This document shows, in pieces, positions 1,403 to 32,592 of a stretch of 32,592 nucleotides of DNA (the stretch's first letter is position 1; every line of letters starts with the position of its first letter). Below the pieces are notes generated by a model. It was not told the DNA's origin. It saw nothing but the letters and a program-made list of their open reading frames with translations, and made no database searches. The stretch is taken from sequence record PQ400057.1. The stretch is one strand, 5' to 3'. The stretch comes from a phage. A program made the position numbers and the translations under genes.

Positions 1403-1927
1403 TTATTCCTCAGGCTTCTCAGGCCAGTCATAGAAAGGCAGTACACTCAGGTCTACTTTGTATACAGCAAGACGGTAAATTCGCCACGCGTTTAGGAGAC
1501 CTTCTAATCCATCCTCCCCAAGTGCCATGAAGTCAGCATACTGCTCAATCTTCTTGGAGGCCATAGAGACTAGACTAGCCTTCTGGTTCTCAAAGTATCG
1601 CGGATACCAAGTTAGCTTCTCACCATCCCACCACCACTGCATCATATTGTAACGAGAGTATTCAGCTGGGATTTCCTCAAGTTCAACAACACCAGCAGAA
1701 CCCTGAACGGCTAACTCCTGAACATCCTGTTCACACTGAATTACCGAACCGTCTTTGGCATAGACAAGTTTCCATGTATCCTCACGGAATGTCTTACGTA
1801 GTTCATACCAGTCATTCCCATTCTCGTCCTTTGAGAAGCCAACTCCGTGGTCCAGAAGGTCTGCATTCTCTTTGGTGCGCTCTGGAATATAGTTTACGAA
1901 GTTCTTATAGTGGCGTAAAGTCTTCAT
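1403..1927 (-). CDS. tail fiber assembly protein (lambda Tfa-like chaperone)
   Basis: The 174-aa ORF starts MKTLRHY at the ATG at 1927, with GGAGG 7 nt upstream, immediately downstream of gp17. Its C-terminus ...LLNAWRIYRLAVYKVDLSVLPFYDWPEKP resembles the conserved Tfa C-terminal motif (lambda ...[25 protein letters not shown]). There is no counterpart in T7. Confidence 0.65.
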   Translation of the reverse strand: MKTLRHYKNFVNYIPERTKENADLLDHGVGFSKDENGNDWYELRKTFREDTWKLVYAKDGSVIQCEQDVQELAVQGSAGVVELEEIPAEYSRYNMMQWWWDGEKLTWYPRYFENQKASLVSMASKKIEQYADFMALGEDGLEGLLNAWRIYRLAVYKVDLSVLPFYDWPEKPEE

Positions 1928-1943
1928 GTTGTACCCTCCCCCT

Positions 1944-3620
1944 TTAGTAAATATTAAAGCGTTGACCATCGTTGCGTACATACTGCATAACACGCCACTG
2001 GCAACCATCTACCGCACCATCAGCGTTACCGTTTGTGATTCCTGTGATCACCTTACCGCCACCATCTTCTATGCCGTAAGCATTCCACAGTTGCGACCAG
2101 TTAACTCCACCCATCGCAATGTGGTTAACGGTATTTGCAACAAGCCAGCCAGCTAGATGACCATGACCACCCCATACAGAGCCTGCAATGTTTCCGTCAG
2201 TGGACATTGCGGCACCACCTGCCTTAATCGTAGTTGGGAATTGAACCTCGCCATTTGGGTTTAGCCAAATGTCATAAGATGTCGCTTGAGATGCTTCCGG
2301 TTTCCACCGGATTAGGCCGTTGCCGTTCGTAGAACCACCTCGAACCCATCCAATTTCTAACCCTGCATCGTAGAAACTCCAACGAGTGTTACAGACCCAT
2401 CCACCTTGGGTCAAATCACCCGGACCATATGCCACCGTCTTAACGGCAGTATTGGCCTGATTAGTAACACCTAGCGGTTTGTTGAATCCTTCTACCTGCA
2501 AACCATTGTAGCAATGCATGAAGTCCCCGAAGTGCATCTCCCACGTAGCCGAATCATTAGCTTTACTTTGAACCTGAAATGGAACATGCCAGTCCCCTCT
2601 ATGTGGGTGCTTAATGGCCCAAAACGTATTTGATACATATTGTCCCTCAGCAGGGTTATACTCATGTACCATCTGCCCCATAGAGCCAGCTTCGGCAGTT
2701 GCCCTCAGGGTTGAAGCACGATTAGCAATAAGTTCACCGTTAAACTTAGCAGTAGCCGCCCACGAAACAACGTGGTCTTGGCTTACTTCCTCAATGGCAC
2801 CTGCAAGTGCATTCCAGTTACCAAGTTTGTCTGCCTCCAACTTAGCGCGGTCTGCTTGCTGTTCTGCCGAATGGGCAGAGTTAGCGGATGCCGTGGCATA
2901 GTTCTCAGCGTTTACCTCAGATTGATGCGCAGCAGTAGCAGAGTTACCAGCAGATGTAGCGTATTGACCAGCCGTATTCTTGAACTGCTCGGCTTCGTCT
3001 CTGAAACCCTTGGTCTCATCACGCCACTGCTTCGTATTCGTAGCGTTAGTGCTGGACTCGTTCTTAAAGCCCTCCGCTTGATTTCTGAAAGTCTCAGCCT
3101 CATTGCGGAACTGTAGGGCCTCATTACGCGCCTGCCATGAGTTCTGGTTCATGGTCTTAAGTTGACCAAACGGAACAGCGTCACGGTCATCCACGGCGTT
3201 CGCTAGGTTCACAATTCGACGACCACGGGCATCCAAGTGACCATCATTATTGACACCGATAGTATCCGCAGTGAGGTCACGGGCCTCTTCTGCTACGTGC
3301 ATCGTTTGAATCTGAGCGACGTTAAGGTCATATGCACGGAGGATTGAACCATCCGTAAAGTCAACCAATCGGTCTGTCGTGGAGGTTACTCGACGTAACT
3401 CAATGGTCGTGTAGCCATCAGCTGTACCCCAAGCCTTGGTCAGTGAGATGGTAGTGCGAGTAGCAAAGCGGTAGTCTGTATTAATAGTAAGGACCTTTCG
3501 GTCTACGCCAATAAGGGTTACTACTACGAACTTACGGGCTAGATACTCAAACGGGATATTAAAATCACGAGTGGAGCCGTCTAACTGGTAAGTCAAAACG
3601 GTTTTAATTACGTTAGCCAT
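1944..3620 (-). CDS. 17: tail fiber protein; T7-like N-terminal and shaft regions, divergent C-terminal receptor-binding region
   Basis: The 558-aa ORF begins MANVIKTVLTYQLDGS...; roughly the first 260 residues closely match T7 gp17. The distal half (..WEMHFGDFMHCYNG..WGGHGHLAGW..) does not match the T7 tip as I recall it. Confidence 0.9.
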   Translation of the reverse strand: MANVIKTVLTYQLDGSTRDFNIPFEYLARKFVVVTLIGVDRKVLTINTDYRFATRTTISLTKAWGTADGYTTIELRRVTSTTDRLVDFTDGSILRAYDLNVAQIQTMHVAEEARDLTADTIGVNNDGHLDARGRRIVNLANAVDDRDAVPFGQLKTMNQNSWQARNEALQFRNEAETFRNQAEGFKNESSTNATNTKQWRDETKGFRDEAEQFKNTAGQYATSAGNSATAAHQSEVNAENYATASANSAHSAEQQADRAKLEADKLGNWNALAGAIEEVSQDHVVSWAATAKFNGELIANRASTLRATAEAGSMGQMVHEYNPAEGQYVSNTFWAIKHPHRGDWHVPFQVQSKANDSATWEMHFGDFMHCYNGLQVEGFNKPLGVTNQANTAVKTVAYGPGDLTQGGWVCNTRWSFYDAGLEIGWVRGGSTNGNGLIRWKPEASQATSYDIWLNPNGEVQFPTTIKAGGAAMSTDGNIAGSVWGGHGHLAGWLVANTVNHIAMGGVNWSQLWNAYGIEDGGGKVITGITNGNADGAVDGCQWRVMQYVRNDGQRFNIY

Positions 3621-3672: not shown

Positions 3673-3695
3673 TCTCCCTATAGTGAGTCGTATTA
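3673..3695 (-). promoter_or_regulatory. phage RNAP promoter phi17 (class III consensus)
   Basis: The reverse complement is TAATACGACTCACTATAGGGAGA exactly, upstream of gene 17 and overlapping the gene 16 stop. Confidence 0.85.
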
Positions 3696-6600
3696 TTTCC
3701 TAGGTGTCTCCTTGATGTGGATACCGTTGGCCTCATAAATTTTCATAATTAGTTGCTGCGTGATAGGGTCGTTCGGAACAATCTCACGCATGGTATTAAA
3801 CATCCCTGTACGAAACTCCATCTCGGTAGCCTTGTTAGGCGCTTTCAGTAGCGATACAGCATTAAGTGCCGTACCACCGACCTGCCCTGCGAACCCCAAA
3901 GCAGGAATCTGATCACCTAGAGCACCACTAATCATACCAGTCACTTGACGACCTGTTACCGCTTTTGTGCGATCGCGTTCTTCTGGTTGCTTCGGTAGTA
4001 CCGTGGAGCGTGTGTACTTATAGGTATCATCACCAAACACACCAGCGATCATATCGTAGATGCTAAGTGGCGAACCTAAGTGTGAGCTACGGGAGATAGA
4101 CGCATGAGCAATCATCTTCGGGTCTAGTGCCATCTTAAGGTACTCCTTACGTTTGTCCTCAGGTAAGGCAGCGGCCTTTAGGTGCGCCTGTCCAACGAAG
4201 TAGCCACCAGCAAGCCCACAGGAAACAATGTGAGTTAACGCTTGGTCTAACGCACGGTTGTTCTTTGTGGCCTCATAGAAGCTACGGACAAATCGAGCAT
4301 TAAGCGACTTGATAACGAAGTTCTTAAATTGCATCACCATCTTTACGCCAGCACCATACGCAACGGAATCTTGAGAGGAAATCTTATGTGGTCGCATGAT
4401 TGTCTCTCCAGCCACTTTGTCAGCAAGCCTCCACAAATCCATTGTGCGTGGGTCGTAGGTGAACGCCCTTTTGTCCTTGATTGTGAACTTACCGTTAGCA
4501 TCACGAGTGGTGTGGTCCCGAAATAATTGCTTGATACCATTCCACTGCTCAGGACTGATTGAGGCAGACTTAAGATAATTTGCCTTACCAAACTTGGCAC
4601 CAGTCCCTGATAGCACAGCACTTGCAATATCCCCTAGCACACCCTGACGGGCTGCGTCGATAATGTAGTTTGTTGTTCCATTAAGCATTACCGTCCATGG
4701 GGAGCGGGCTGCTAACTCCTGCGTCCCGAAACGAAGAGTACCAACCACATTAGCCAACACAGCGTTGGTGTCTGTAGACTCCCTAAGTCTGCGAATGTGA
4801 TCTTCACGACTCGGACGGATTAGCTGGTCTAGTTCCTTCCCGAATACCATACTGTGGAGTTCTTTAATCTCAGAGGCTCGCATTGGTTTCCTACGGTTAA
4901 CCCAGTCGTTAATCATAGGGATTCCATGAGTCACCGCAGAGACATTACCTTTGATCAACATAGCACCTATCTCCGTGAAGTTCTGGAGAGGCATATAGAA
5001 GTTCTTAGCGAAGAACGTCAGGTCATTCAGAGAGCGTAAAGCTGTCCCTAAAGCACCTTCTGGGCTACGACGGGCGCGACCAGTTAGAATCTTCACTGTA
5101 TCCTTAAGAGCTTCTACTTCGCCCTTCAACTTCCCGTTGCCTTCGGCCTGCTTACTCAGTGCCATAATTTCATCCTTGAGTTCCTTGGTAGTTTTACCAG
5201 AGCTACCCATGATAGCAATATCGCCATTTACACGACGGTCATATGCTGGCATAAGGATGCGCTGGCTGAACACTCGAATGTCATCTACTGAGAACATAGA
5301 GCCATCTGGTAACGTGATTGGTACATCGGTGTCAAAGAGGTTACGTGCTTCCAGAAAGTTATTGTTCTCGATACCAACAAGCCCCGTGATATTCTCATCA
5401 ACAATAGAAGACGCCGAGAACTGGTCTGTATGGGAGATACCATATGCCTTGTCCATAGCATACTTCCGGACCATTTCGTGTGTTACGTCTTTAGTTGACT
5501 TAAGCCCGTTGACTTCCATCAGGTGCTCGTCGATACGTGCCTTAACTGGTGGACGCAGATAGTATGACGCAAGGGAGCTTTCAGCGATAGCCCTCTGGAA
5601 AGCCTCTCGACTCCCCAAACGTTGAATATGAAAATTCTTCAATTGGGTGTCATACACTCGCGGAATGTATGTACCTTTGTTGCGACTGTCGGGGAAGATA
5701 CTAACCGCCTTTGAATTACCAAACACAGCAGGGTTTTCCATAAGTTCACGCTTGAGGTCATAGTGACCTTTAACGTGGCGCATCAGGTCTAGCTCTTTGG
5801 GAGACAAGTTGACCTGCATTTCAGGATGTTCGATAGCAAGAGCAATTTTACGGTCGATGAACTCAACGGCCTCTGCTTTGCTCATCTTAGGCGCACCTAC
5901 TGTGAACTCAGGGTCTTTCATGACTTCCTTCATCTTATCATAGTATAGGTTCCAATCGCGGTTATCGTTGGATGATAGCCTACTATGGATATCATCAGCG
6001 GTCGAGCCGAACTTACCGTTAGACCCTGATTCCATACCAGTTGGAGAGCGCACTAGGTCACGCGCAATGGAGCGAACTCCCGTGTTCTCAGAGCGTAGTG
6101 TCTTAAGGCCAATCTCAGTGAACCCACCTAAGGAGATACCTCTGGCTGAACGCTCAGGATTTATCGCCTCAAACTCACTTAGTGTCTGTGGGTTCAGTGG
6201 GTTAGTGTCACTGAGGATTTGACCTTGAGGGAGGACGACTGCACCTGGCTCGGTGTCCAATGGTGCGTAGTTAACCCCACTGTACTCTCGGTCGAATTTG
6301 GTACTGTCTGTGTTCATCTTAGACATGTCCACAGAGTTGGCGTTAAAGGCAGTCTCACGGGCTTCCATACGCATCAACGGTCCGACGAACTCGTTGTTAA
6401 ACTCAGCCTCAGGTTTGCTACGCCTCAATCCAGCGGCTATAGTGTCACTGATTGCAGACATTCCTGCCCCAAACACAAGGCCACCTAGTACCGCACCAGT
6501 ATAATTAGCGTCTCCACCAACTATAGACGTTCGCAACCCTTCTGAGGCCATGTTAATAGCTGCACTCTCAGCACCGACAACAAGAGCCTTATTGATTAAC

Positions 6601-7667
6601 TTAAATCCCTTACCTGTTACACCAACCAACGGAACATACGATAGAGGGTCGAATGCCGCACCAATAACGCCAGCGGAAAGCTGTGCCCCGATACCTGCAT
6701 CAGCTTTCTTTAGGTCATTCTCGTAGTTACGCTTAGCTAGATTGATAAGGTCATCCCAGTTCTCACCGTCACCACCAGTAACCACAGAGTAATAACTAGG
6801 AGGCAACCCACTGTTACGTAGTTTGTCCAAGTCTTCCTTGGTAGGCTGGTAGGAGTTCCAACGCGTAGGCGTGATAACATCCTTAAACACATCAAAACCA
6901 TTATCGAGGCGACCAGCACGGAAGGCCATGCCGAGGACTGAGTTGTCAATTTCTGCACTTGCAGCGTCTTTGAATCCGAAGAATATTGAGCGGTCGTCAT
7001 ACTCAGATAGTTCCTGTTTATGGTGGTCCCAAAAGTCAGTAGCGAATGATTTCGCTGGGGCCTCCTGCTCGATACCTTTAATGTCCAATCCAGTTGACTC
7101 AGGGATAGCATCCGTTACTTTGCGCTTCCCTTCTACCTGAATGTCTCCTAAACCAACATCAGAAGGGATACCTTTACCCTTTGGGGTGATTCCACCGAAC
7201 GCTTCCAACTGACCACTCATTGGCGACCTAGCTACATCCATGAGGTTACGTATGTAGTTACGACCCTCCTCGGAGATAGCTGAGAAGTCGCCCTTTGTGT
7301 ATGCTTCAAGTTGTGGACTCCCTAAGCGTCCCTCACCTTGATTGTACGCAAGGGCAGCTTTGAGTTCATCCCCATCGAATTTACTCACCAGTCCAGCAAG
7401 GTGCTTGGCAGCAGCATCAATAGCCAACTCAGGGTTCAGTCGGTCGTCGTCTGGACCATCGGTGACTCGCAACCCCATAGCCTTAGCTGTAGCCTTGGTG
7501 AATTGCATCATGCCTAACGGTCCAGTCTTAGATTTAGCTGTTGGTTGAAACCGTGATTCTGTCCAAGCGACTTTACGTAAAAGGTCATAAGAGACCCCTG
7601 TGGCATCAGCCGCCTTCTGGAACAGACCATCATACTCACTTGGTACGTTCTTATCGTACTTATCCAT
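3693..7667 (-). CDS. 16: internal virion protein D with N-terminal lytic transglycosylase domain (ejection/core protein)
   Basis: The 1324-aa ORF begins MDKYDKNVPSEYDGLFQKAADATGVSYDLLRKVAWTESRF... (an SLT-like motif with catalytic E); overall gp16 architecture. Confidence 0.95.
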   Translation of the reverse strand: MDKYDKNVPSEYDGLFQKAADATGVSYDLLRKVAWTESRFQPTAKSKTGPLGMMQFTKATAKAMGLRVTDGPDDDRLNPELAIDAAAKHLAGLVSKFDGDELKAALAYNQGEGRLGSPQLEAYTKGDFSAISEEGRNYIRNLMDVARSPMSGQLEAFGGITPKGKGIPSDVGLGDIQVEGKRKVTDAIPESTGLDIKGIEQEAPAKSFATDFWDHHKQELSEYDDRSIFFGFKDAASAEIDNSVLGMAFRAGRLDNGFDVFKDVITPTRWNSYQPTKEDLDKLRNSGLPPSYYSVVTGGDGENWDDLINLAKRNYENDLKKADAGIGAQLSAGVIGAAFDPLSYVPLVGVTGKGFKLINKALVVGAESAAINMASEGLRTSIVGGDANYTGAVLGGLVFGAGMSAISDTIAAGLRRSKPEAEFNNEFVGPLMRMEARETAFNANSVDMSKMNTDSTKFDREYSGVNYAPLDTEPGAVVLPQGQILSDTNPLNPQTLSEFEAINPERSARGISLGGFTEIGLKTLRSENTGVRSIARDLVRSPTGMESGSNGKFGSTADDIHSRLSSNDNRDWNLYYDKMKEVMKDPEFTVGAPKMSKAEAVEFIDRKIALAIEHPEMQVNLSPKELDLMRHVKGHYDLKRELMENPAVFGNSKAVSIFPDSRNKGTYIPRVYDTQLKNFHIQRLGSREAFQRAIAESSLASYYLRPPVKARIDEHLMEVNGLKSTKDVTHEMVRKYAMDKAYGISHTDQFSASSIVDENITGLVGIENNNFLEARNLFDTDVPITLPDGSMFSVDDIRVFSQRILMPAYDRRVNGDIAIMGSSGKTTKELKDEIMALSKQAEGNGKLKGEVEALKDTVKILTGRARRSPEGALGTALRSLNDLTFFAKNFYMPLQNFTEIGAMLIKGNVSAVTHGIPMINDWVNRRKPMRASEIKELHSMVFGKELDQLIRPSREDHIRRLRESTDTNAVLANVVGTLRFGTQELAARSPWTVMLNGTTNYIIDAARQGVLGDIASAVLSGTGAKFGKANYLKSASISPEQWNGIKQLFRDHTTRDANGKFTIKDKRAFTYDPRTMDLWRLADKVAGETIMRPHKISSQDSVAYGAGVKMVMQFKNFVIKSLNARFVRSFYEATKNNRALDQALTHIVSCGLAGGYFVGQAHLKAAALPEDKRKEYLKMALDPKMIAHASISRSSHLGSPLSIYDMIAGVFGDDTYKYTRSTVLPKQPEERDRTKAVTGRQVTGMISGALGDQIPALGFAGQVGGTALNAVSLLKAPNKATEMEFRTGMFNTMREIVPNDPITQQLIMKIYEANGIHIKETPRK

Positions 7668-26933: not shown

Positions 26934-27632
26934 TTAGAAGTCTCCGTCTGAGTCTTCTTCGTAAGAGCCTTCGTCGTCTTCGTCCCAGCTTTCTTCGTCG
27001 CGTGGTTTGCTCGCTTTGGCAGAACCAGAGGCAACATAGCCGTTCTCTTCAACTTCGTCAGCCCAATCGTCTTCACCACCACCAAAGGTAGCCAGTTCGA
27101 CCAGCATTACGGATTCCAGTTGCAGCTTAACGCTCGCACCTACAGCAGTGTTCCACTTGTACGGAACCAGAGAGTATTTGACTTTCAGTTTAGAGCCACC
27201 ACCGATAATCGGAACGTCTTCCATCTTCTTACCTTTGGAGTCAACCACAACAAGATTGATGTGCTTGGTCTCTTTGGTCTTCTTGTCTTGGAAAGACGCG
27301 TAGCATTTGAACTTAAAGGTAGTCGTACCGTCACCGTTATCGAAGAACGGCATGTCACCTTCATACGGTTTCAGCGGTTTCTTACCACGAGCTACCGCAG
27401 GCGGGTTCGCTTCGTATTCCTCAACGGCAGCAGCATAAGCCTCTTCGTGACACTTCACGATTTCATCGACCATGCGTTGGCAGCGCGGGTCTTTGTTGGG
27501 AATAGTCAGGTCAACTTTGTAGACACCGCGAGGGTTCCCAAAGCCACGCTCTTCGTTACCGTAGTCAGGCTTAGAGATGTAAGCGTAAGGTTCAGCAGTG
27601 CCCAGCGCAGAGGTGAAAATCTTCTTAGCCAT
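26934..27632 (-). CDS. 2.5: single-stranded DNA-binding protein
   Basis: The internal ATG at 27632 gives MAKKIFTSALGTAEPYAYISKPDYGNEERGFGNPRG..., with an acidic C-terminal tail ending DGDF, matching T7 gp2.5 (232 aa). Confidence 0.95.
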   Translation of the reverse strand: MAKKIFTSALGTAEPYAYISKPDYGNEERGFGNPRGVYKVDLTIPNKDPRCQRMVDEIVKCHEEAYAAAVEEYEANPPAVARGKKPLKPYEGDMPFFDNGDGTTTFKFKCYASFQDKKTKETKHINLVVVDSKGKKMEDVPIIGGGSKLKVKYSLVPYKWNTAVGASVKLQLESVMLVELATFGGGEDDWADEVEENGYVASGSAKASKPRDEESWDEDDEGSYEEDSDGDF

Positions 27633-27677
27633 AATATTAATCTCCTTTAGGTTTCGTTTGTTTCTCAAAGGGAGTCT

Positions 27678-27697
27678 TCTCCCAATAGTGAGTCGTA

Positions 27698-27700
<3 letters not shown>
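27678..27700 (-). promoter_or_regulatory. phage RNAP promoter phi2.5
   Basis: The reverse complement is TAATACGACTCACTATTGGGAGA (-1 is T instead of A), overlapping the end of gene 2 and upstream of gene 2.5. Confidence 0.8.
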
Positions 27701-28005
<305 letters not shown>

Positions 28006-28016
<11 letters not shown>

Positions 28017-28545
28017 AGCACTTATCCTTATGTTTCTCATACAGTTCACCATAGAATCCAGCTTTCGCCATGTCTTTCTCTAAGTAAGCCAGTTCTGACT
28101 TCTTACCAGCGCGTAGGCGGTACTTAAGGATGTTCCCTAAGCAATATCCTTTGAACTGCTCACGAGTCATTGAACGGGCAATCACTTCGATAGCCTCAAT
28201 GTCGTCGAACAGCATGTAATGGGAAGGCTTAGTGACACCTTCAATTGACTCAGCGGAAGGCTGGTCATCTGTCGGAGTTACCTCAAGTTTATTCAGATGA
28301 GGCTTACGCGGGTCCATCGCTCGGATTTCACCTAAGGTTATCTTTTGATCATTGTTTGCGGGGCAGAGGTGGCAAGGGACATTTGAGCAGAGCATCCCGC
28401 AGCCATTCAAATCATCCGGGCGACCATCGTTATTGTCTACCAACTTCATGATCATCTCTTGTTCACGTTCGGTCATACTGTTAGCTCCTTTATTACAGGT
28501 GTGTGGATAACGGTCGTCTTTCTCTAAGCAAGCTATGCATCCCAT
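28006..28545 (-). CDS. 1.7: gene 1.7 protein (nucleotide kinase in T7)
   Basis: The 179-aa [53 protein letters not shown]... matches the T7 gp1.7 core. Confidence 0.85.
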
Positions 28546-28805
28546 CAGAACACCTCCTTGATACGTTTGAGTAACAGACGGACGAACGGGAAGCGGGTCA
28601 CTGCCACACTAAGAACCGGACGTTTCTTGTCTATTGCTTTCTCAAAGTCACCACGGGTGATAATGATGTGGACGCTCGGTGCCAGAGGAACTGTGTTACC
28701 AATGAGAGGTAACTTAGCTCGGCGCTCGCTCGCACATACGATTGAACGGTCAGCACGGCGAACCGTGAAATTCTCAAGACTTTTGTTGTAATGAAGTCGA
28801 AACAT
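28545..28805 (-). CDS. 1.6: gene 1.6 protein
   Basis: The 86-aa [43 protein letters not shown]... matches T7 gp1.6. Confidence 0.85.
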
Positions 28806-28810
28806 ATGGT

Positions 28811-28833
28811 GTCTCCTTTAGTGAGTCGTATTA
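28811..28833 (-). promoter_or_regulatory. phage RNAP promoter phi1.6 (class II)
   Basis: The reverse complement is TAATACGACTCACTAAAGGAGAC, immediately upstream of gene 1.6. Confidence 0.8.
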
Positions 28834-28920
28834 GGCGTGACCATCTGGCATATCGTCATCACTACAGTGGAGCGAAAGGCATCCTATGATGACAATGAGT
28901 AATGGCATTAAGTACATCAT
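28831..28920 (-). CDS. 1.5: gene 1.5 protein (29 aa)
   Basis: A small ORF MMYLMPLLIVIIGCLSLHCSDDDMPDGHA, with AAGGAGG 8 nt upstream, sits between phi1.5 and phi1.6. It is not on the ORF track. Confidence 0.55.
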   Translation of the reverse strand: MMYLMPLLIVIIGCLSLHCSDDDMPDGHA

Positions 28921-28926
28921 GATGTG

Positions 28927-28949
28927 TACCTCCTTTAGTGAGTCGTATT
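28927..28949 (-). promoter_or_regulatory. phage RNAP promoter phi1.5 (class II)
   Basis: The reverse complement is TAATACGACTCACTAAAGGAGGTAC; it is the first promoter encountered from the genome left end. Confidence 0.8.
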
Positions 28950-28987
28950 AAACGCAGAAAAGCCCACCCTAAGGTGAGCCAGTGTGT

Positions 28988-30007
28988 TTACATCTTCTCT
29001 TGAGGGTTGTCCTCGGTGCCACGGAAGCAGGTGAAGGAGGGGTGTCTGAGACTCCCATCGTTAGTTACCTCCATAAATCCAATCTGGCAAGCCCAGCCAT
29101 TATAGTAGTCCTCGCCATGTTCTTTAACGTTAGCTGTAAATTCATCCATTAAGGCGCGAGAGATGTTATTGGCATCGACAAGACGACCAGTCTCAAGAAG
29201 CACCTTGAATCCAATTACCTTACCTTCGTTAGCAAGTCCTTCTGTTCCCCAGTTTACACCATTAATGATTCCGTCAGCTTCCTCAAGAGGCTTAAGTTTC
29301 CACCAGCCGGACTTCTTACCGCGCTTGTAGATGCACATCGGGTCTTTCACAATGAGACCCTCATGTCCTTCTTCACGCTTCTTCTCGTACAGTTGCTGTA
29401 GTTCTACCATATCGTAGACCTCGTAAGACTCAGCCGCTTGCCATTCGATTTCAGGGAAGTATTCCTGTAGCAGAGGCAGCATGTTCTTAACGTGTTCCTG
29501 CATGAGCAACGTCATGACATCACAGTCTTCCCCAGACTCCACGATGTGCAGAGGGAGGATAGCGTACAGTCGGACACTCAGATGTTTGGTATCCAACGCG
29601 AACTCAACCTTGGACCCCTTGAGTGGTGGTACACCGCCAACGTCGAACTCAAAGTTATTCTTGTTGAGCCACTTGGTACGCAGTAGGCCGGACCCTGTGT
29701 TAAAGTCTACGCCCTTGACCATTAGTTCCCCATCGAGCATAAAGCCATCCTTGTAGAAACAACGGTCATCGTTAAGCAGACGCTTCCAGCGAACATCAAA
29801 CCCGTTTAAGTGCTCCAGTGCCGGAATCGTTTTAGATACACGAGAGAGCCAGCAACTGTTAGCTGTATTGTCTACGCAGATGTTACCGCGCACACCATCG
29901 TACTTAATGTCAGCGATAAGATACCCAGCGTTATCCAGAGCTTTCTTAATGGCAGACTCTACGAAAGATACTGCCTTGTATGGTGAAGTCTTAAAGTTAA
30001 TAATCAT
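28988..30007 (-). CDS. 1.3: ATP-dependent DNA ligase
   Basis: The 339-aa ORF MIINFKTSPYKAVSFVESAIKKALDNAGYLIADIKYDGVRG... has the ligase KxDG adenylation motif and matches T7 gp1.3. GAGG is 8 nt upstream of the ATG. Confidence 0.95.
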   Translation of the reverse strand: MIINFKTSPYKAVSFVESAIKKALDNAGYLIADIKYDGVRGNICVDNTANSCWLSRVSKTIPALEHLNGFDVRWKRLLNDDRCFYKDGFMLDGELMVKGVDFNTGSGLLRTKWLNKNNFEFDVGGVPPLKGSKVEFALDTKHLSVRLYAILPLHIVESGEDCDVMTLLMQEHVKNMLPLLQEYFPEIEWQAAESYEVYDMVELQQLYEKKREEGHEGLIVKDPMCIYKRGKKSGWWKLKPLEEADGIINGVNWGTEGLANEGKVIGFKVLLETGRLVDANNISRALMDEFTANVKEHGEDYYNGWACQIGFMEVTNDGSLRHPSFTCFRGTEDNPQEKM

Positions 30008-30408
30008 ATGTATTTCCTCAGTTTGCCATTTCGTATGTAGTGTATTGTTGAAGCAGCCACATTAAGTGCCCTTGCTAGCTCCCTGCCGGAGCGAGGGTCC
30101 GTCCGTATCATATCGACCTGCTCATTAGTTATCTTTCTAGCACCACGGCCTTTGATAGCCATGTCTCTAAGGTTGTCTGCCTGTGTGCCCTTGGTTAGAT
30201 GTGCAGGATTTACACACCACCTATTGTCACAGGAGTGTAGGACTATATCGCTCTTATTCAACTCACCGTTGAACAGAATGTACGAAGCCCTATGGGCATA
30301 TATAGGCTTACCATGCAGGCGGAACCGTCCGTAACCATTGGGCTGGATACTACCAATCCAACGGGACAAGAAGAGACACCAAAAGGTAAACCCAAGGGTC
30401 AACCCCAA
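30004..30408 (-). CDS. HNH (His-Me finger, HNH_3-like) endonuclease ORF; no canonical start, open frame runs into the terminal repeat, possibly 5'-truncated or a pseudogene
   Basis: The translation ...NGYGRFRLHGKPIYAHRASYILFNGELNKSDIVLHSCDNRWCVNPAHLTKGTQADNLRDMAIKG contains the GYGRF...AHR...HxCDN..C.NP.HL core. The first in-frame ATG is downstream of the catalytic motif; the track start is a TTG inside the repeat with no SD. The stop overlaps the ligase ATG (ATGA). Confidence 0.55.
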   Translation of the reverse strand: MGLTLGFTFWCLFLSRWIGSIQPNGYGRFRLHGKPIYAHRASYILFNGELNKSDIVLHSCDNRWCVNPAHLTKGTQADNLRDMAIKGRGARKITNEQVDMIRTDPRSGRELARALNVAASTIHYIRNGKLRKYI

Positions 30409-30507
30409 CCCTTAGGGACCCTCAAAGTCAACTGAAAGTTGACTCAAGGTGATTGGCTGGACTTTAGGGACCCCTATGGGGGAACTTTAGGTCCGTAAAC
30501 TGTGAGA
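30361..30507. repeat. terminal repeat homolog (single copy in this circular-style window); concatemer junction at about 30507/30508
   Basis: The reverse complement starts TCTCACAGTTTACGGACCTAAAGTTCCCCCATAGGGG...GTCAACTTTCAGTTGAC...GGGTTGGGGTTGACCCTTGGGTTT..., colinear with the 160-bp T7 terminal repeat (TCTCACAGTGTACGGACCTAAAG...), and is preceded by ...AAAATCTGAGTGACTA as at the T7 right end. The inner boundary is approximate. Confidence 0.7.
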
Positions 30508-30747
30508 TAGTCACTCAGATTTTTATGGTATATTTTAAAGGACCCTCTAGGAACTCCCTATGCCCTCTCTAAGACCCTCTTTAGGTTCCACTGATAGGAG
30601 GGCCTATCTTTAGGTATAGACCTTACGGATAGACCATTAGAGGCTCTTTATGGGTATACCTTAAGACTTGACTCTATAGGGATGAAGTGGTGTGATGCAA
30701 TCATACCGCTGAATCCCTCGGTGAGCCATCAGTCGGTCAGGAAGACC

Positions 30748-30897
30748 CTAATCGCTACAAGTGAGTAGAGAGCAAACTGTAGACTCCAGTGAACTGAGGT
30801 CTCCAGTAAGAGATGCGTACCCAAGGGCAGCACAAAGTACCACAAGAAATCGGTAGGTGACTCTATGCCGCAACAAGGTCAACAATAAGCGGAACAT
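30748..30897 (-). CDS. 19.5: gene 19.5 protein (49 aa)
   Basis: The ORF MFRLLLTLLRHRVTYRFLVVLCAALGYASLTGDLSSLESTVCSLLTCSD, with AAAGGAGGG upstream, lies downstream of phiOR and matches T7 gp19.5. It is not on the ORF track. Confidence 0.7.
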   Translation of the reverse strand: MFRLLLTLLRHRVTYRFLVVLCAALGYASLTGDLSSLESTVCSLLTCSD

Positions 30898-31051
30898 GAG
30901 TCTCCCTCCTTTATGTTGGTCTTTAAGTTAAGGTGATATTAATACAATATAATCACCATTCTTGGAGGTCACTTTAGGTACACCATTATGCATACTTTAT
31001 GCACTCTATAAGTATTCATTCAGTATCTATATAGTAACCTTTCGTCCCTCC

Positions 31052-31074
31052 TCTCCCTATAGTGAGTCGTATTA
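31052..31074 (-). promoter_or_regulatory. phage RNAP promoter phiOR (class III consensus) near the genome right end
   Basis: The reverse complement is TAATACGACTCACTATAGGGAGA, between gene 19 and gene 19.5. Confidence 0.8.
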
Positions 31075-31155
31075 ATTTATCGTGTCTTTTCAGTAACTTA
31101 AAGAACTGACCATCCGTGGTCTATAGTGCATCCCTATGCAGTCTCAGTGAATAAA

Positions 31156-32592
31156 TCACCACTCAATGAAAGACGTACCGTAACCCTCATCGTCCTCAGA
31201 GTATACATCAACTCCTCCCACAGACATCTCAATGATGTGCGTAGCAGCGACCGTAGGGCGCATCATGTGCTCCTCAAGGAAGTCAGCAAGCACTTCACCT
31301 TCTACCTTAACGGAATCCAACTGCATGGACTCGCGGAGATACTCAATGCCTAACGCAAGGGCATCCAATCGGTCATCATGTGCCAGAGCGCCTTTCTCAC
31401 GAGTGATACGGGTCATCTGGTAGAACAGTGAATACTTAACGTCATGCTTACCGTCTACGTCACGAGCGGACTGGTAGTCGGCCCTAATGACCTCATCACG
31501 AATGACAAGGCGGTGAGTCTGCATGACTGGCTCAAGGGTATCACAAATACGCATCTCCTTCATACCACGAGCACGAATCTCCTCCATTGCACAGTTGTGG
31601 TGTTTAAGAAGGATAGGACTGAACACCTTACCAAACATGCCGTCACCGAAGTTACTCTCATAGACGACCGTCTGGACTCCCCATTGCTTAGCTTTCCTAG
31701 CGAGCAACTCAAGGGTCTTATCGGAGTAACCATCGCGGAAACCTCCAGCTTCCATTAGGTAGATGTAACCGTTCAGGGTGAACAGCACAGCGTAACCTGT
31801 TTCGTCCTTACCGCGACCACTAGGGTCAATGACCAGAATCTTCTGTTGGTACTGACCAGAGTTGTTGGAGCAATCATGGTAAGTATGCAGGTCATCACCC
31901 TTAAGGCCAACGTTAGGAAGGTCCTCAATGATGTTCTGACGGTTCGGAAGCCATTGGTAATGCATTGGAGCCTTCTCTAAGTCTAAGGCCGCTACGATAG
32001 CGTCACGGAGCCTCAGAGGGTACTTCTCGGCATCACTCAGGTTCGGGTTAAGCATGAACTGTAGTGTGAAGCCAGCCTTACCGTATTCCAACTCACGCTC
32101 ACGGAGGTCCTCTCGGTCGAAGCGCACAGGGTCCGTAGGAGTCCCGGCGAGGGCCTCAGGGTTCTCATCGTACTCAGCACGTAGCATAGGGGCAAGTCGC
32201 TGTGCGTAATAGAGGTTCTCTTCGCGAGTCCTTGGGTACAGAGCAGGCCAGATGATAGTGGTATACCCACGGTTATCCTCAAGTTCCTTATAGAGAGTCA
32301 TCTCGGTCTGAGGTGTGCCAAGGTAGATAACACGAGAGGAAGGCAGCGGTTTAAGCAACGCAGCGAACTCCTGAACTAGAGTCCATAGCTTCTCACGGGC
32401 ACCCATAGTCGCACTGTTAGACGGAATCTCAACATCATCCGCAATGATAATGTCAGCACGGCTACCAGTTAACTGACCAGTGATACCTACCGATTTTACA
32501 CTAGGAGAGTGGTCAGGGTTAGCTGGACCTACATCAAAGCTAATTACAGAATCACGCTGTCCGGGTCTTGGCTTCAATTCAGCAAGGAAAGG
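31156..32592 (-). CDS. 19: terminase large subunit (DNA maturase B), C-terminal part; 5' portion is at window start (1..323)
   Basis: The ORF is open to the window edge and ends ...[17 protein letters not shown], matching the T7 gp19 C-terminus. Upstream codons at the edge ([14 protein letters not shown]) continue the window-start fragment (...[10 protein letters not shown]), with one nucleotide missing across the join. Confidence 0.95.

Follow-up and report, generated by a model that had tools for sequence, protein, structure and literature searches.

Probable loss of the whole early region from a T7-like phage genome with a promoterless HNH-ligase locus

The phage sequence PQ400057.1 (32,592 nucleotides [nt]; the window, by which we mean this whole stretch of DNA) encodes an ATP-dependent DNA ligase preceded by an open reading frame (ORF) for an HNH endonuclease. 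In the linear genome, this pair lies ahead of the first phage promoter, which raises the question of how the ligase is transcribed. The original prediction was that ligase and HNH are expressed only from concatemeric or circular DNA, by transcripts that start at the promoter phiOR and read across the joined genome ends. Sequence comparison with related phages argues for a different origin of this arrangement. The genome probably arose from a T7-like phage through a real deletion of the whole early region, with the RNA polymerase gene in it, and does not represent a new form of ligase regulation.

By its alignment with T7, the window is a complete, circularly permuted genome of the Teseptimavirus type, with 1 nt absent at the window ends. 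All long ORFs are on the minus strand. Gene 19 begins at ∼323 (−), exits at position 1, and resumes from position 32592, and after the insertion of one base between the window ends, T7 gene product 19 (gp19) aligned over its full length (586 amino acids [aa], 99%) in a tblastn search of the circularized window. The absent base is the wobble position of the Leu108 codon (CT?) of gp19, a position at which T7 has G and phiA1122 and Escherichia phage Bas104 have A. A single polymorphic site at positions 1/32592 looks like the break of a de Bruijn graph cycle; if it is one, the sample contained two variants, and the graph had no branch at the deletion junction described below. T7 and T7-like phages (Cedecea phage Yanou, EG1, and Bas104) cover 84 to 98% of the sequence at 90 to 92% identity, with Yanou matching 98% of a 25-kb query at 92% identity. 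The blastn blocks are collinear with T7 (80 to 94% identity), and the gene order from gene 1.3 to gene 19.5 is that of T7. Full-length tblastn matches were obtained for T7 gp2, gp2.5, gp3, gp3.5, gp4A, gp5, gp6, gp8 to gp16, gp18, and gp19; the T7 virion, DNA-packaging (gp18 and gp19), and lysis genes form a complete and intact set, and the class II and class III genes are all intact together with their 12 promoters.

The early genes, in contrast to this late set, are missing. No match to T7 gp0.3, gp0.4, gp0.5, gp0.6A, gp0.7, gp1, gp1.1, or gp1.2 was found by tblastn in the circularized window. As the T7 RNA polymerase (gp1) had no tblastn match anywhere in the window, relocation of the polymerase gene within it is ruled out, and the window contains no ORF of ∼880 aa. 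In Bas104, Yersinia phage WW2, and the Logan contig SRR24155047_30427 (L005), the order is RNA polymerase gene, 1.1, 1.2, phi1.3, HNH (137 aa), and ligase, and phi1.3 is found just upstream of the HNH ATG (TAATACGACTCAGTATAGGG in Bas104 and TAATACGACTCACTAAAGGA in WW2). The window shares with this module orthologous HNH and ligase genes (87 to 97% nt identity). It differs in what precedes them: the three relatives have a T7-type promoter a few nt before the HNH ATG, itself preceded by the RNA polymerase gene, 1.1, and 1.2, while the window has the terminal repeat. The match of the window to all three starts at nt 55 of the HNH gene, and L005, which is 96.9% identical to the window over the truncated HNH gene (HNH′) and ligase, has the normal order and gives the same nt 55 break. 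A second contig, PUSW01000046.1 from NCBI, encodes a gp19.5 identical to that of the window and continues with the repeat (CTTGTCCCT), ATCTGTT, ocr, kinase, RNA polymerase gene, 1.1, 1.2, and ligase.

The absent interval measures 6,552 bp in Bas104 coordinates. Following the repeat, relatives carry in this interval the concatemer junction (CJ) pause site ATCTGTT, phiOL, the host promoters A1 to A3, genes 0.3 to 0.7, the RNA polymerase gene, 1.1, 1.2, and phi1.3; also lost with it are phi1.1A/B and the first 18 codons of HNH. The primary replication origin of T7, with phi1.1A/B, lies within the stretch that is deleted here. Since phi1.3, phi1.1A/B, A1 to A3, and phiOL are the promoters that transcribe the ligase in relatives, their removal left HNH′-ligase without a promoter of its own.

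The deletion junction was located by a megablast search with positions 27500..32592, in which the matches break at a single base, 30363. On its upstream side, which covers the terminase gene, phiOR, gene 19.5, and the repeat, the sequence aligns with the right ends of T7-like phages as far as the final bases of the linear records; on its downstream side, the alignment shifts to the interior of the “endonuclease” gene located before the ligase in Bas104 and WW2. The junction was confirmed when the window was compared directly with Bas104, WW2, L005, and PUSW01000046.1. A 311-nt probe across 30362/30363 was also compared by blastn with 50,697 phage records. The linear records of Yersinia phage R and phage CQ615 end exactly at the junction base, that of YpYeO9 ends 1 nt beyond it, and that of phiA1122 ends 2 nt beyond it. 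The left deletion endpoint is therefore the mature right terminus of the genome, give or take 0 to 2 nt. The repeat ends with ...TGTCCCT in T7 and with ...TGTCCCCT in phiA1122, each followed by ATCTGTTAC in the left end, and ATCTGTT comes directly after the repeat in T7, phiA1122, Bas104, and PUSW01000046.1. On the coding strand of the window, ATCTGTT does not occur anywhere.

At most one base (C) is common to the two sides of the junction. Deletion between direct repeats is ruled out by this single shared nt, and a nearby CTGTT/CTGTT pair would yield a different product. An end joined to an interior site with so little homology (≤1 nt) suggests end-joining, or template switching, at a right end that was either mature or generated by processing; as read from the sequence, the junction pattern does not fit recombination between short repeats.

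Table 1. Features around the deletion junction of PQ400057.1 (window positions)
Feature	Position	Strand	Description
phiOR	31052..31074	−	Consensus T7 class III promoter; exact TAATACGACTCACTATAGGGAGA; 40.1 bits; sole promoter upstream of HNH′-ligase in the direction of transcription
Gene 19.5 (49 aa)	30748..30897	−	First gene downstream of phiOR; 94.6% identity to T7 gp19.5 (tblastn)
Direct terminal repeat, one collapsed copy (145 nt)	30363..30507	−	From TCTCACAG to CTTGTCCC; aligns with both ends of T7 and phiA1122
Conserved hairpin in terminal repeat	30427..30443	−	GTCAACTTTCAGTTGAC; also seen in the predicted fold; corresponds to GTCAACCTTCGGTTGAC in T7
Deletion junction	30362..30363		Final C of the repeat (30363) joined directly to HNH nt 55/56 (30362); ≤1 nt of microhomology
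5′-truncated HNH homing-endonuclease gene	30004..30362	−	Alignment with 137-aa orthologues; Pfam HNH_3
Gene 1.3, ATP-dependent DNA ligase (339 aa), intact	28988..30007	−	Own Shine-Dalgarno sequence and ATG
Counterpart of T7 early terminator TE (host RNA polymerase)	28951..28986	−	Just after ligase; CACACTGGCTCACCTTAGGGTGGGCTTTTCTGCGTT
phi1.5	28928..28950	−	TAATACGACTCACTAAAGGAGGT; first T7-type promoter from the left end; +1 at ∼nt 1,575; aligns with T7 from 7761 onward
phi1.6	28811..28833	−	Promoter search and matrix

Promoters were located by an exact search for the 23-mer consensus and by a relaxed promoter search over the window, and a weight matrix was then built from the 13 sites found. 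All 13 are on the minus strand and correspond to T7 phiOR, 1.5, 1.6, 2.5, 3.8, 4c, 4.3, 4.7, 6.5, 9, 10, 13, and 17. They scored 27 to 40 bits, compared with 6.4 bits for the next best site in the window, and the exact consensus is present six times, once as phiOR. No T7-type promoter was found between phiOR and the ligase ATG (30008..31051, −), where the top matrix score was −10.4 bits. Sigma-70-like sites numbered 0 on both strands of 28700..31200, an interval that takes in the leftmost ∼1.8 kb of the genome, versus 3.5 ± 1.7 expected from shuffled sequences. Together, the two scans rule out a cryptic promoter ahead of the ligase. The left end of the genome lies at 30507 (TCTCACAG), as in T7 and phiA1122, and the first promoter of any kind begins at nt 1,558 from this end; the first 1,557 nt contain neither sigma-70-like nor T7-type promoters. 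A promoter-free stretch of this kind is not in itself improbable by chance, and its abnormality shows solely against its relatives, where phi1.3 immediately precedes the HNH gene. The TE counterpart was assigned from a blastn block in which rotated positions 1408 to 1559 align with T7 7442 to 7593, spanning TE at 7588.

Much of the layout on which the original prediction was built is confirmed by these data: the lack of any promoter-like sequence ahead of HNH-ligase, phiOR at 31052..31074 as the nearest upstream promoter (an exact match to the 23-mer), the left end at 30507, and the hairpin at 30427..30443, which is found both in the sequence and in the predicted fold. The promoter phi1.5 is indeed the first from the left end and lies downstream of the ligase, but its placement at 28927..28949 was off by one base (Table 1).

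The HNH ORF carries the mark of the deletion. The remnant lacks the first 18 codons (MxDxxRFNxKTEPCGDCL), and with them the ATG, the ribosome-binding site, and the N-terminal CxxC, in whose place there is sequence derived from the repeat. From residue 19 on, it is identical to its orthologues apart from a few substitutions, and the HNH_3 domain scored 32.6 bits against a cutoff of 24.8 (profile positions 2 to 46 of 46). The HNH homologues in a collection of 5.8 billion proteins (n = 17) are 130 to 154 aa long, mostly 137 to 138 aa; the window's HNH is truncated relative to every one of them, as it is relative to the Bas104 and WW2 orthologues, none of the 17 covers more than 95% of the query, and none (0 of 17) has the repeat-derived N terminus of the repeat-HNH fusion ORF. 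The HNH frame is open back into the repeat for 45 nt (30363..30408, −) to a TTG at 30408, which is the sole in-frame start upstream of the HNH domain. A gene caller would report a 134-aa “HNH” here, with its first 15 residues encoded by the repeat, which makes this ORF an annotation trap. T7 genes 1.4, 2.8, 3.8, 5.3, and 7.7 have no homologues at their T7 positions in the window. Because T7 gp2.8 and gp7.7, used as queries, matched solely the truncated HNH (38 to 39% identity), the only HNH-type gene of this genome is the damaged one. The ligase is 79% identical to T7 gp1.3 over residues 1 to 359, i.e., its full length (tblastn), and contains DNA_ligase_A_M (PF01068, 114.8 bits) and DNA_ligase_C (PF17879, 122.4 bits) domains. 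Neither the HNH remnant nor the ligase shows decay.

With gene 1 absent and all 13 promoters of the T7 type, the genome cannot transcribe itself. We therefore infer that it is defective and that its expression needs an RNA polymerase of T7 specificity supplied in trans. This polymerase could come from a host expressing T7 polymerase or from a coinfecting full-length relative. The host is slightly favored, as no branch toward a wild-type path is seen in the contig. Once polymerase was present, the class II and class III genes would run from their own promoters. HNH′-ligase would be reached only by transcripts that start at phiOR or further upstream and pass, in concatemers, through gene 19.5 and the repeat. 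These transcripts would meet no CJ pause site on the way, and TE, a stop for the host enzyme but not for the phage enzyme, would not end them. The primary origin being in the deleted stretch, phiOR would also remain as a secondary origin. The region resembles the concatemer junction of wild-type T7 in its phiOR-type promoter, gene 19.5, and a repeat with the same hairpins, and it differs in having no ATCTGTT, so that transcripts would run into HNH′-ligase without the packaging pause. The ligase is dispensable on ligase-proficient hosts, and for this reason the arrangement of HNH′-ligase is probably tolerated rather than selected. That the repeat can be crossed is seen in wild-type T7, where the polymerase transcribes through it in concatemers and pauses at the CJ site beyond it (PMC3276506; bioRxiv 10.1101/2021.01.11.426313), a pause linked to the start of packaging (PMC3276506). 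The repeat also contains a terminator-like hairpin followed by a T-run at 30391..30416 (−) (CCTAAGGGTTGGGGTTGACCCTTGGG TTTACCTTTT), which is conserved in the T7 repeat; this element could attenuate phiOR transcripts ahead of HNH′-ligase.

These results bear directly on the proposal that ligase and HNH belong to a normal autonomous phage that has placed them for concatemer-only expression via phiOR. In its favor, phiOR is the only upstream promoter, and the part of the claim that stands is that no other promoter could reach the pair. A designed strategy of a normal phage is nevertheless highly improbable, and the promoterless state is better read as a deletion scar. The genome has no RNA polymerase gene and no host promoter and so is not autonomous; no T7-type promoter here, phiOR among them, fires without an outside polymerase. 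In every relative, HNH directly follows phi1.3, and early transcription extends to TE. The HNH sequence is a 5′-truncated remnant without 18 codons, start codon, or ribosome-binding site, truncated against all 17 homologues and the Bas104 and WW2 orthologues. The contrast drawn there between the replicated and the infecting genome is moot, as no usable promoter lies within 1,557 nt of the left end of the infecting genome.

Several observations weigh against a real deletion derivative. Presumably, the primary origin is gone, by its placement in T7, and the CJ pause site is deleted. Entry of T7 DNA without transcription is limited to ∼850 bp, a limit that is lifted by the gp16 substitutions G737D, I754T, and E761K (PMC8954989). 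The first promoter here begins beyond that distance, at nt 1,558, and compensating entry mutations in gp16 are ruled out, as G737, I754, and E761 are all wild type. Given the entry limit and the loss of the CJ site and the primary origin, efficient propagation is uncertain even with polymerase in trans, and a genome with these defects might propagate poorly. In addition, the junction was found in no other source. No phage record among the 50,697 holds both junction halves together, and the junction was equally absent from IMG/VR, JGI metagenomes, and GTDB genomes (exact-pattern scans), from plasmids and Escherichia coli genomes (megablast), and from the 5.8-billion-protein collection. An IMG/VR scan with the window's own terminal-repeat sequence did not find the parent, and exact-protein look-ups of the ligase, gp17, and gp2.5 returned nothing on record.

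The uniqueness of the junction, and the apparent nonviability of the predicted genome under the T7 model of entry and packaging, would be explained if the join of repeat and HNH were an assembly or data-processing artifact, either chimeric or produced by lost sequence, in a real phage with a normal early region of ∼6.5 kb. The left endpoint also coincides with a physical DNA end, the kind of place at which contigs stop and library ligation produces chimeras. The structure of the contig argues in the other direction. There is no repeat common to both sides that could mislead an assembler, the microhomology being ≤1 nt, and the contig is unbroken across the junction; its break is elsewhere, in gene 19, where one wobble base is absent. 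If this break is read as a de Bruijn bubble caused by one single-nucleotide polymorphism, there would be no competing branch at the repeat or at HNH. A chimera with a random partner site would not normally win the consensus, and all other genes are clean. An artifact is thus unlikely, and less likely than a deletion derivative.

If the genome is a real deletion derivative, the polymerase may have come from another phage instead of the host. In this special case of the deletion reading, the genome would be a helper-dependent cheater, similar to a defective interfering genome, that in mixed infection uses the RNA polymerase and early functions of its full-length parent and gains from a genome ∼17% shorter. 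We regard this as possible, though on the doubtful side. The loss of an essential trans-acting function fits, as does the retention of all virion genes, the class II and class III promoters, phiOR, the repeat, and the right-end region; the deletion also looks recent, with the HNH remnant and ligase undecayed. The contig, on the other hand, gives no sign of a coassembled wild-type branch, as far as its break in gene 19 can be interpreted. The problem of DNA entry would be the same, and the CJ site and primary origin, cis elements expected in a successful cheater, are lost. A literature search turned up no T7-like defective interfering genome. The likeness to defective interfering or cheater genomes (a shortened genome, loss of an essential trans-acting gene, and retention of structural genes and some cis parts, namely, phiOR, the repeat, and the right-end region) is one of sequence; the CJ site, phiOL, the primary-origin region, and the entry promoters are lost. 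Phage satellites (P4, PICI, PLE, and similar elements) are ruled out by the full set of virion, packaging, and lysis genes. A stronger form of the idea, a naturally propagating polymerase-less derivative with its mature right end joined to an interior break, parasitic on the RNA polymerase and early functions of coinfecting relatives despite having lost the entry promoters, CJ site, and primary origin, is quite improbable.

An early-region deletion derivative of a T7-like phage, the explanation we prefer, is a known kind of genome, and it is the endpoint at the terminus that is unusual. Viable T7 early deletions keep the essential gene 1 and the entry promoters, and many arose between short direct repeats. 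Unlike spontaneous T7 early deletions, the present genome has lost gene 1, has its left endpoint at the genome terminus, and shows microhomology of ≤1 nt. It is similar to them in the loss of nonessential class I genes, the shorter genome, and the intact late genes; T7 tolerates such losses and at times selects them, as with a 2.1-kb early-gene deletion that became fixed under UV selection (PMC6042481). The closest counterpart for the loss of gene 1 is T7 deletion mutant 4107, with which the genome shares the absence of gene 1 and the retention of T7 promoters and later genes. Mutant 4107, made in the laboratory, has a deletion limited to gene 1 and keeps A1 to A3, phiOL, the CJ site, genes 0.3 to 0.7, genes 1.1 and 1.2, the primary origin, and phi1.3. 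The present genome, by contrast, is ∼90% identical to T7 and has lost all the left-end elements that 4107 keeps; with A1 to A3 and phiOL gone, the retained entry promoters that mark this class are not found here. Mutant 4107 (T7 delta-1, the “T7 tester phage”) grows only on hosts making T7 RNA polymerase, such as BL21(DE3) (PMC545050, PMC11011186). An identity to T7 of only ∼90% rules out a laboratory T7 construct. With respect to the features of Autographiviridae and Teseptimavirus, T7 promoters and gene order are present in the window, and the phage's own single-subunit RNA polymerase is absent.

Outside the deleted region, similarity to T7 gp17 is limited to residues 1 to 296 within an intact 558-aa frame (1403..3620 region, −), and the C-terminal receptor-binding part diverges. 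A 201-aa ORF at 1403..2008, for which T7 has no equivalent gene, overlaps the end of the gp17 gene and encodes a Caudo_TAP tail-fiber assembly domain (38 bits). Together, the divergent C terminus and this ORF suggest a swapped host-range module. In the region 3693..7667 (−), gp16 and gp15 are 66% and 80% identical to their T7 counterparts, compared with 90 to 100% for most neighboring proteins (100% for gp9). This lower identity indicates, at the level of sequence, a mosaic exchange of ejection-protein genes.

For annotation, this genome is not to be treated as a complete autonomous phage, and its “promoterless ligase” is not a regulatory design; as a finding on ligase regulation, it is ordinary. 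Should the junction be an artifact, it would be a useful warning about circularized contigs of linear phage genomes with terminal repeats. If the genome is both real and propagating, it would show that illegitimate joining at a mature terminus can create large left-end deletions. It would also put three points of T7 biology to the test: that drawing the genome into the cell requires transcription starting in the first ∼850 bp, that packaging cannot begin without a polymerase pause at the concatemer junction, and that the primary origin matters. Were the parasitic derivative described above to be true, the T7 model would overrate how indispensable the entry promoters, CJ site, and primary origin are, with phiOR acting as origin, packaging promoter, and sole ligase promoter.

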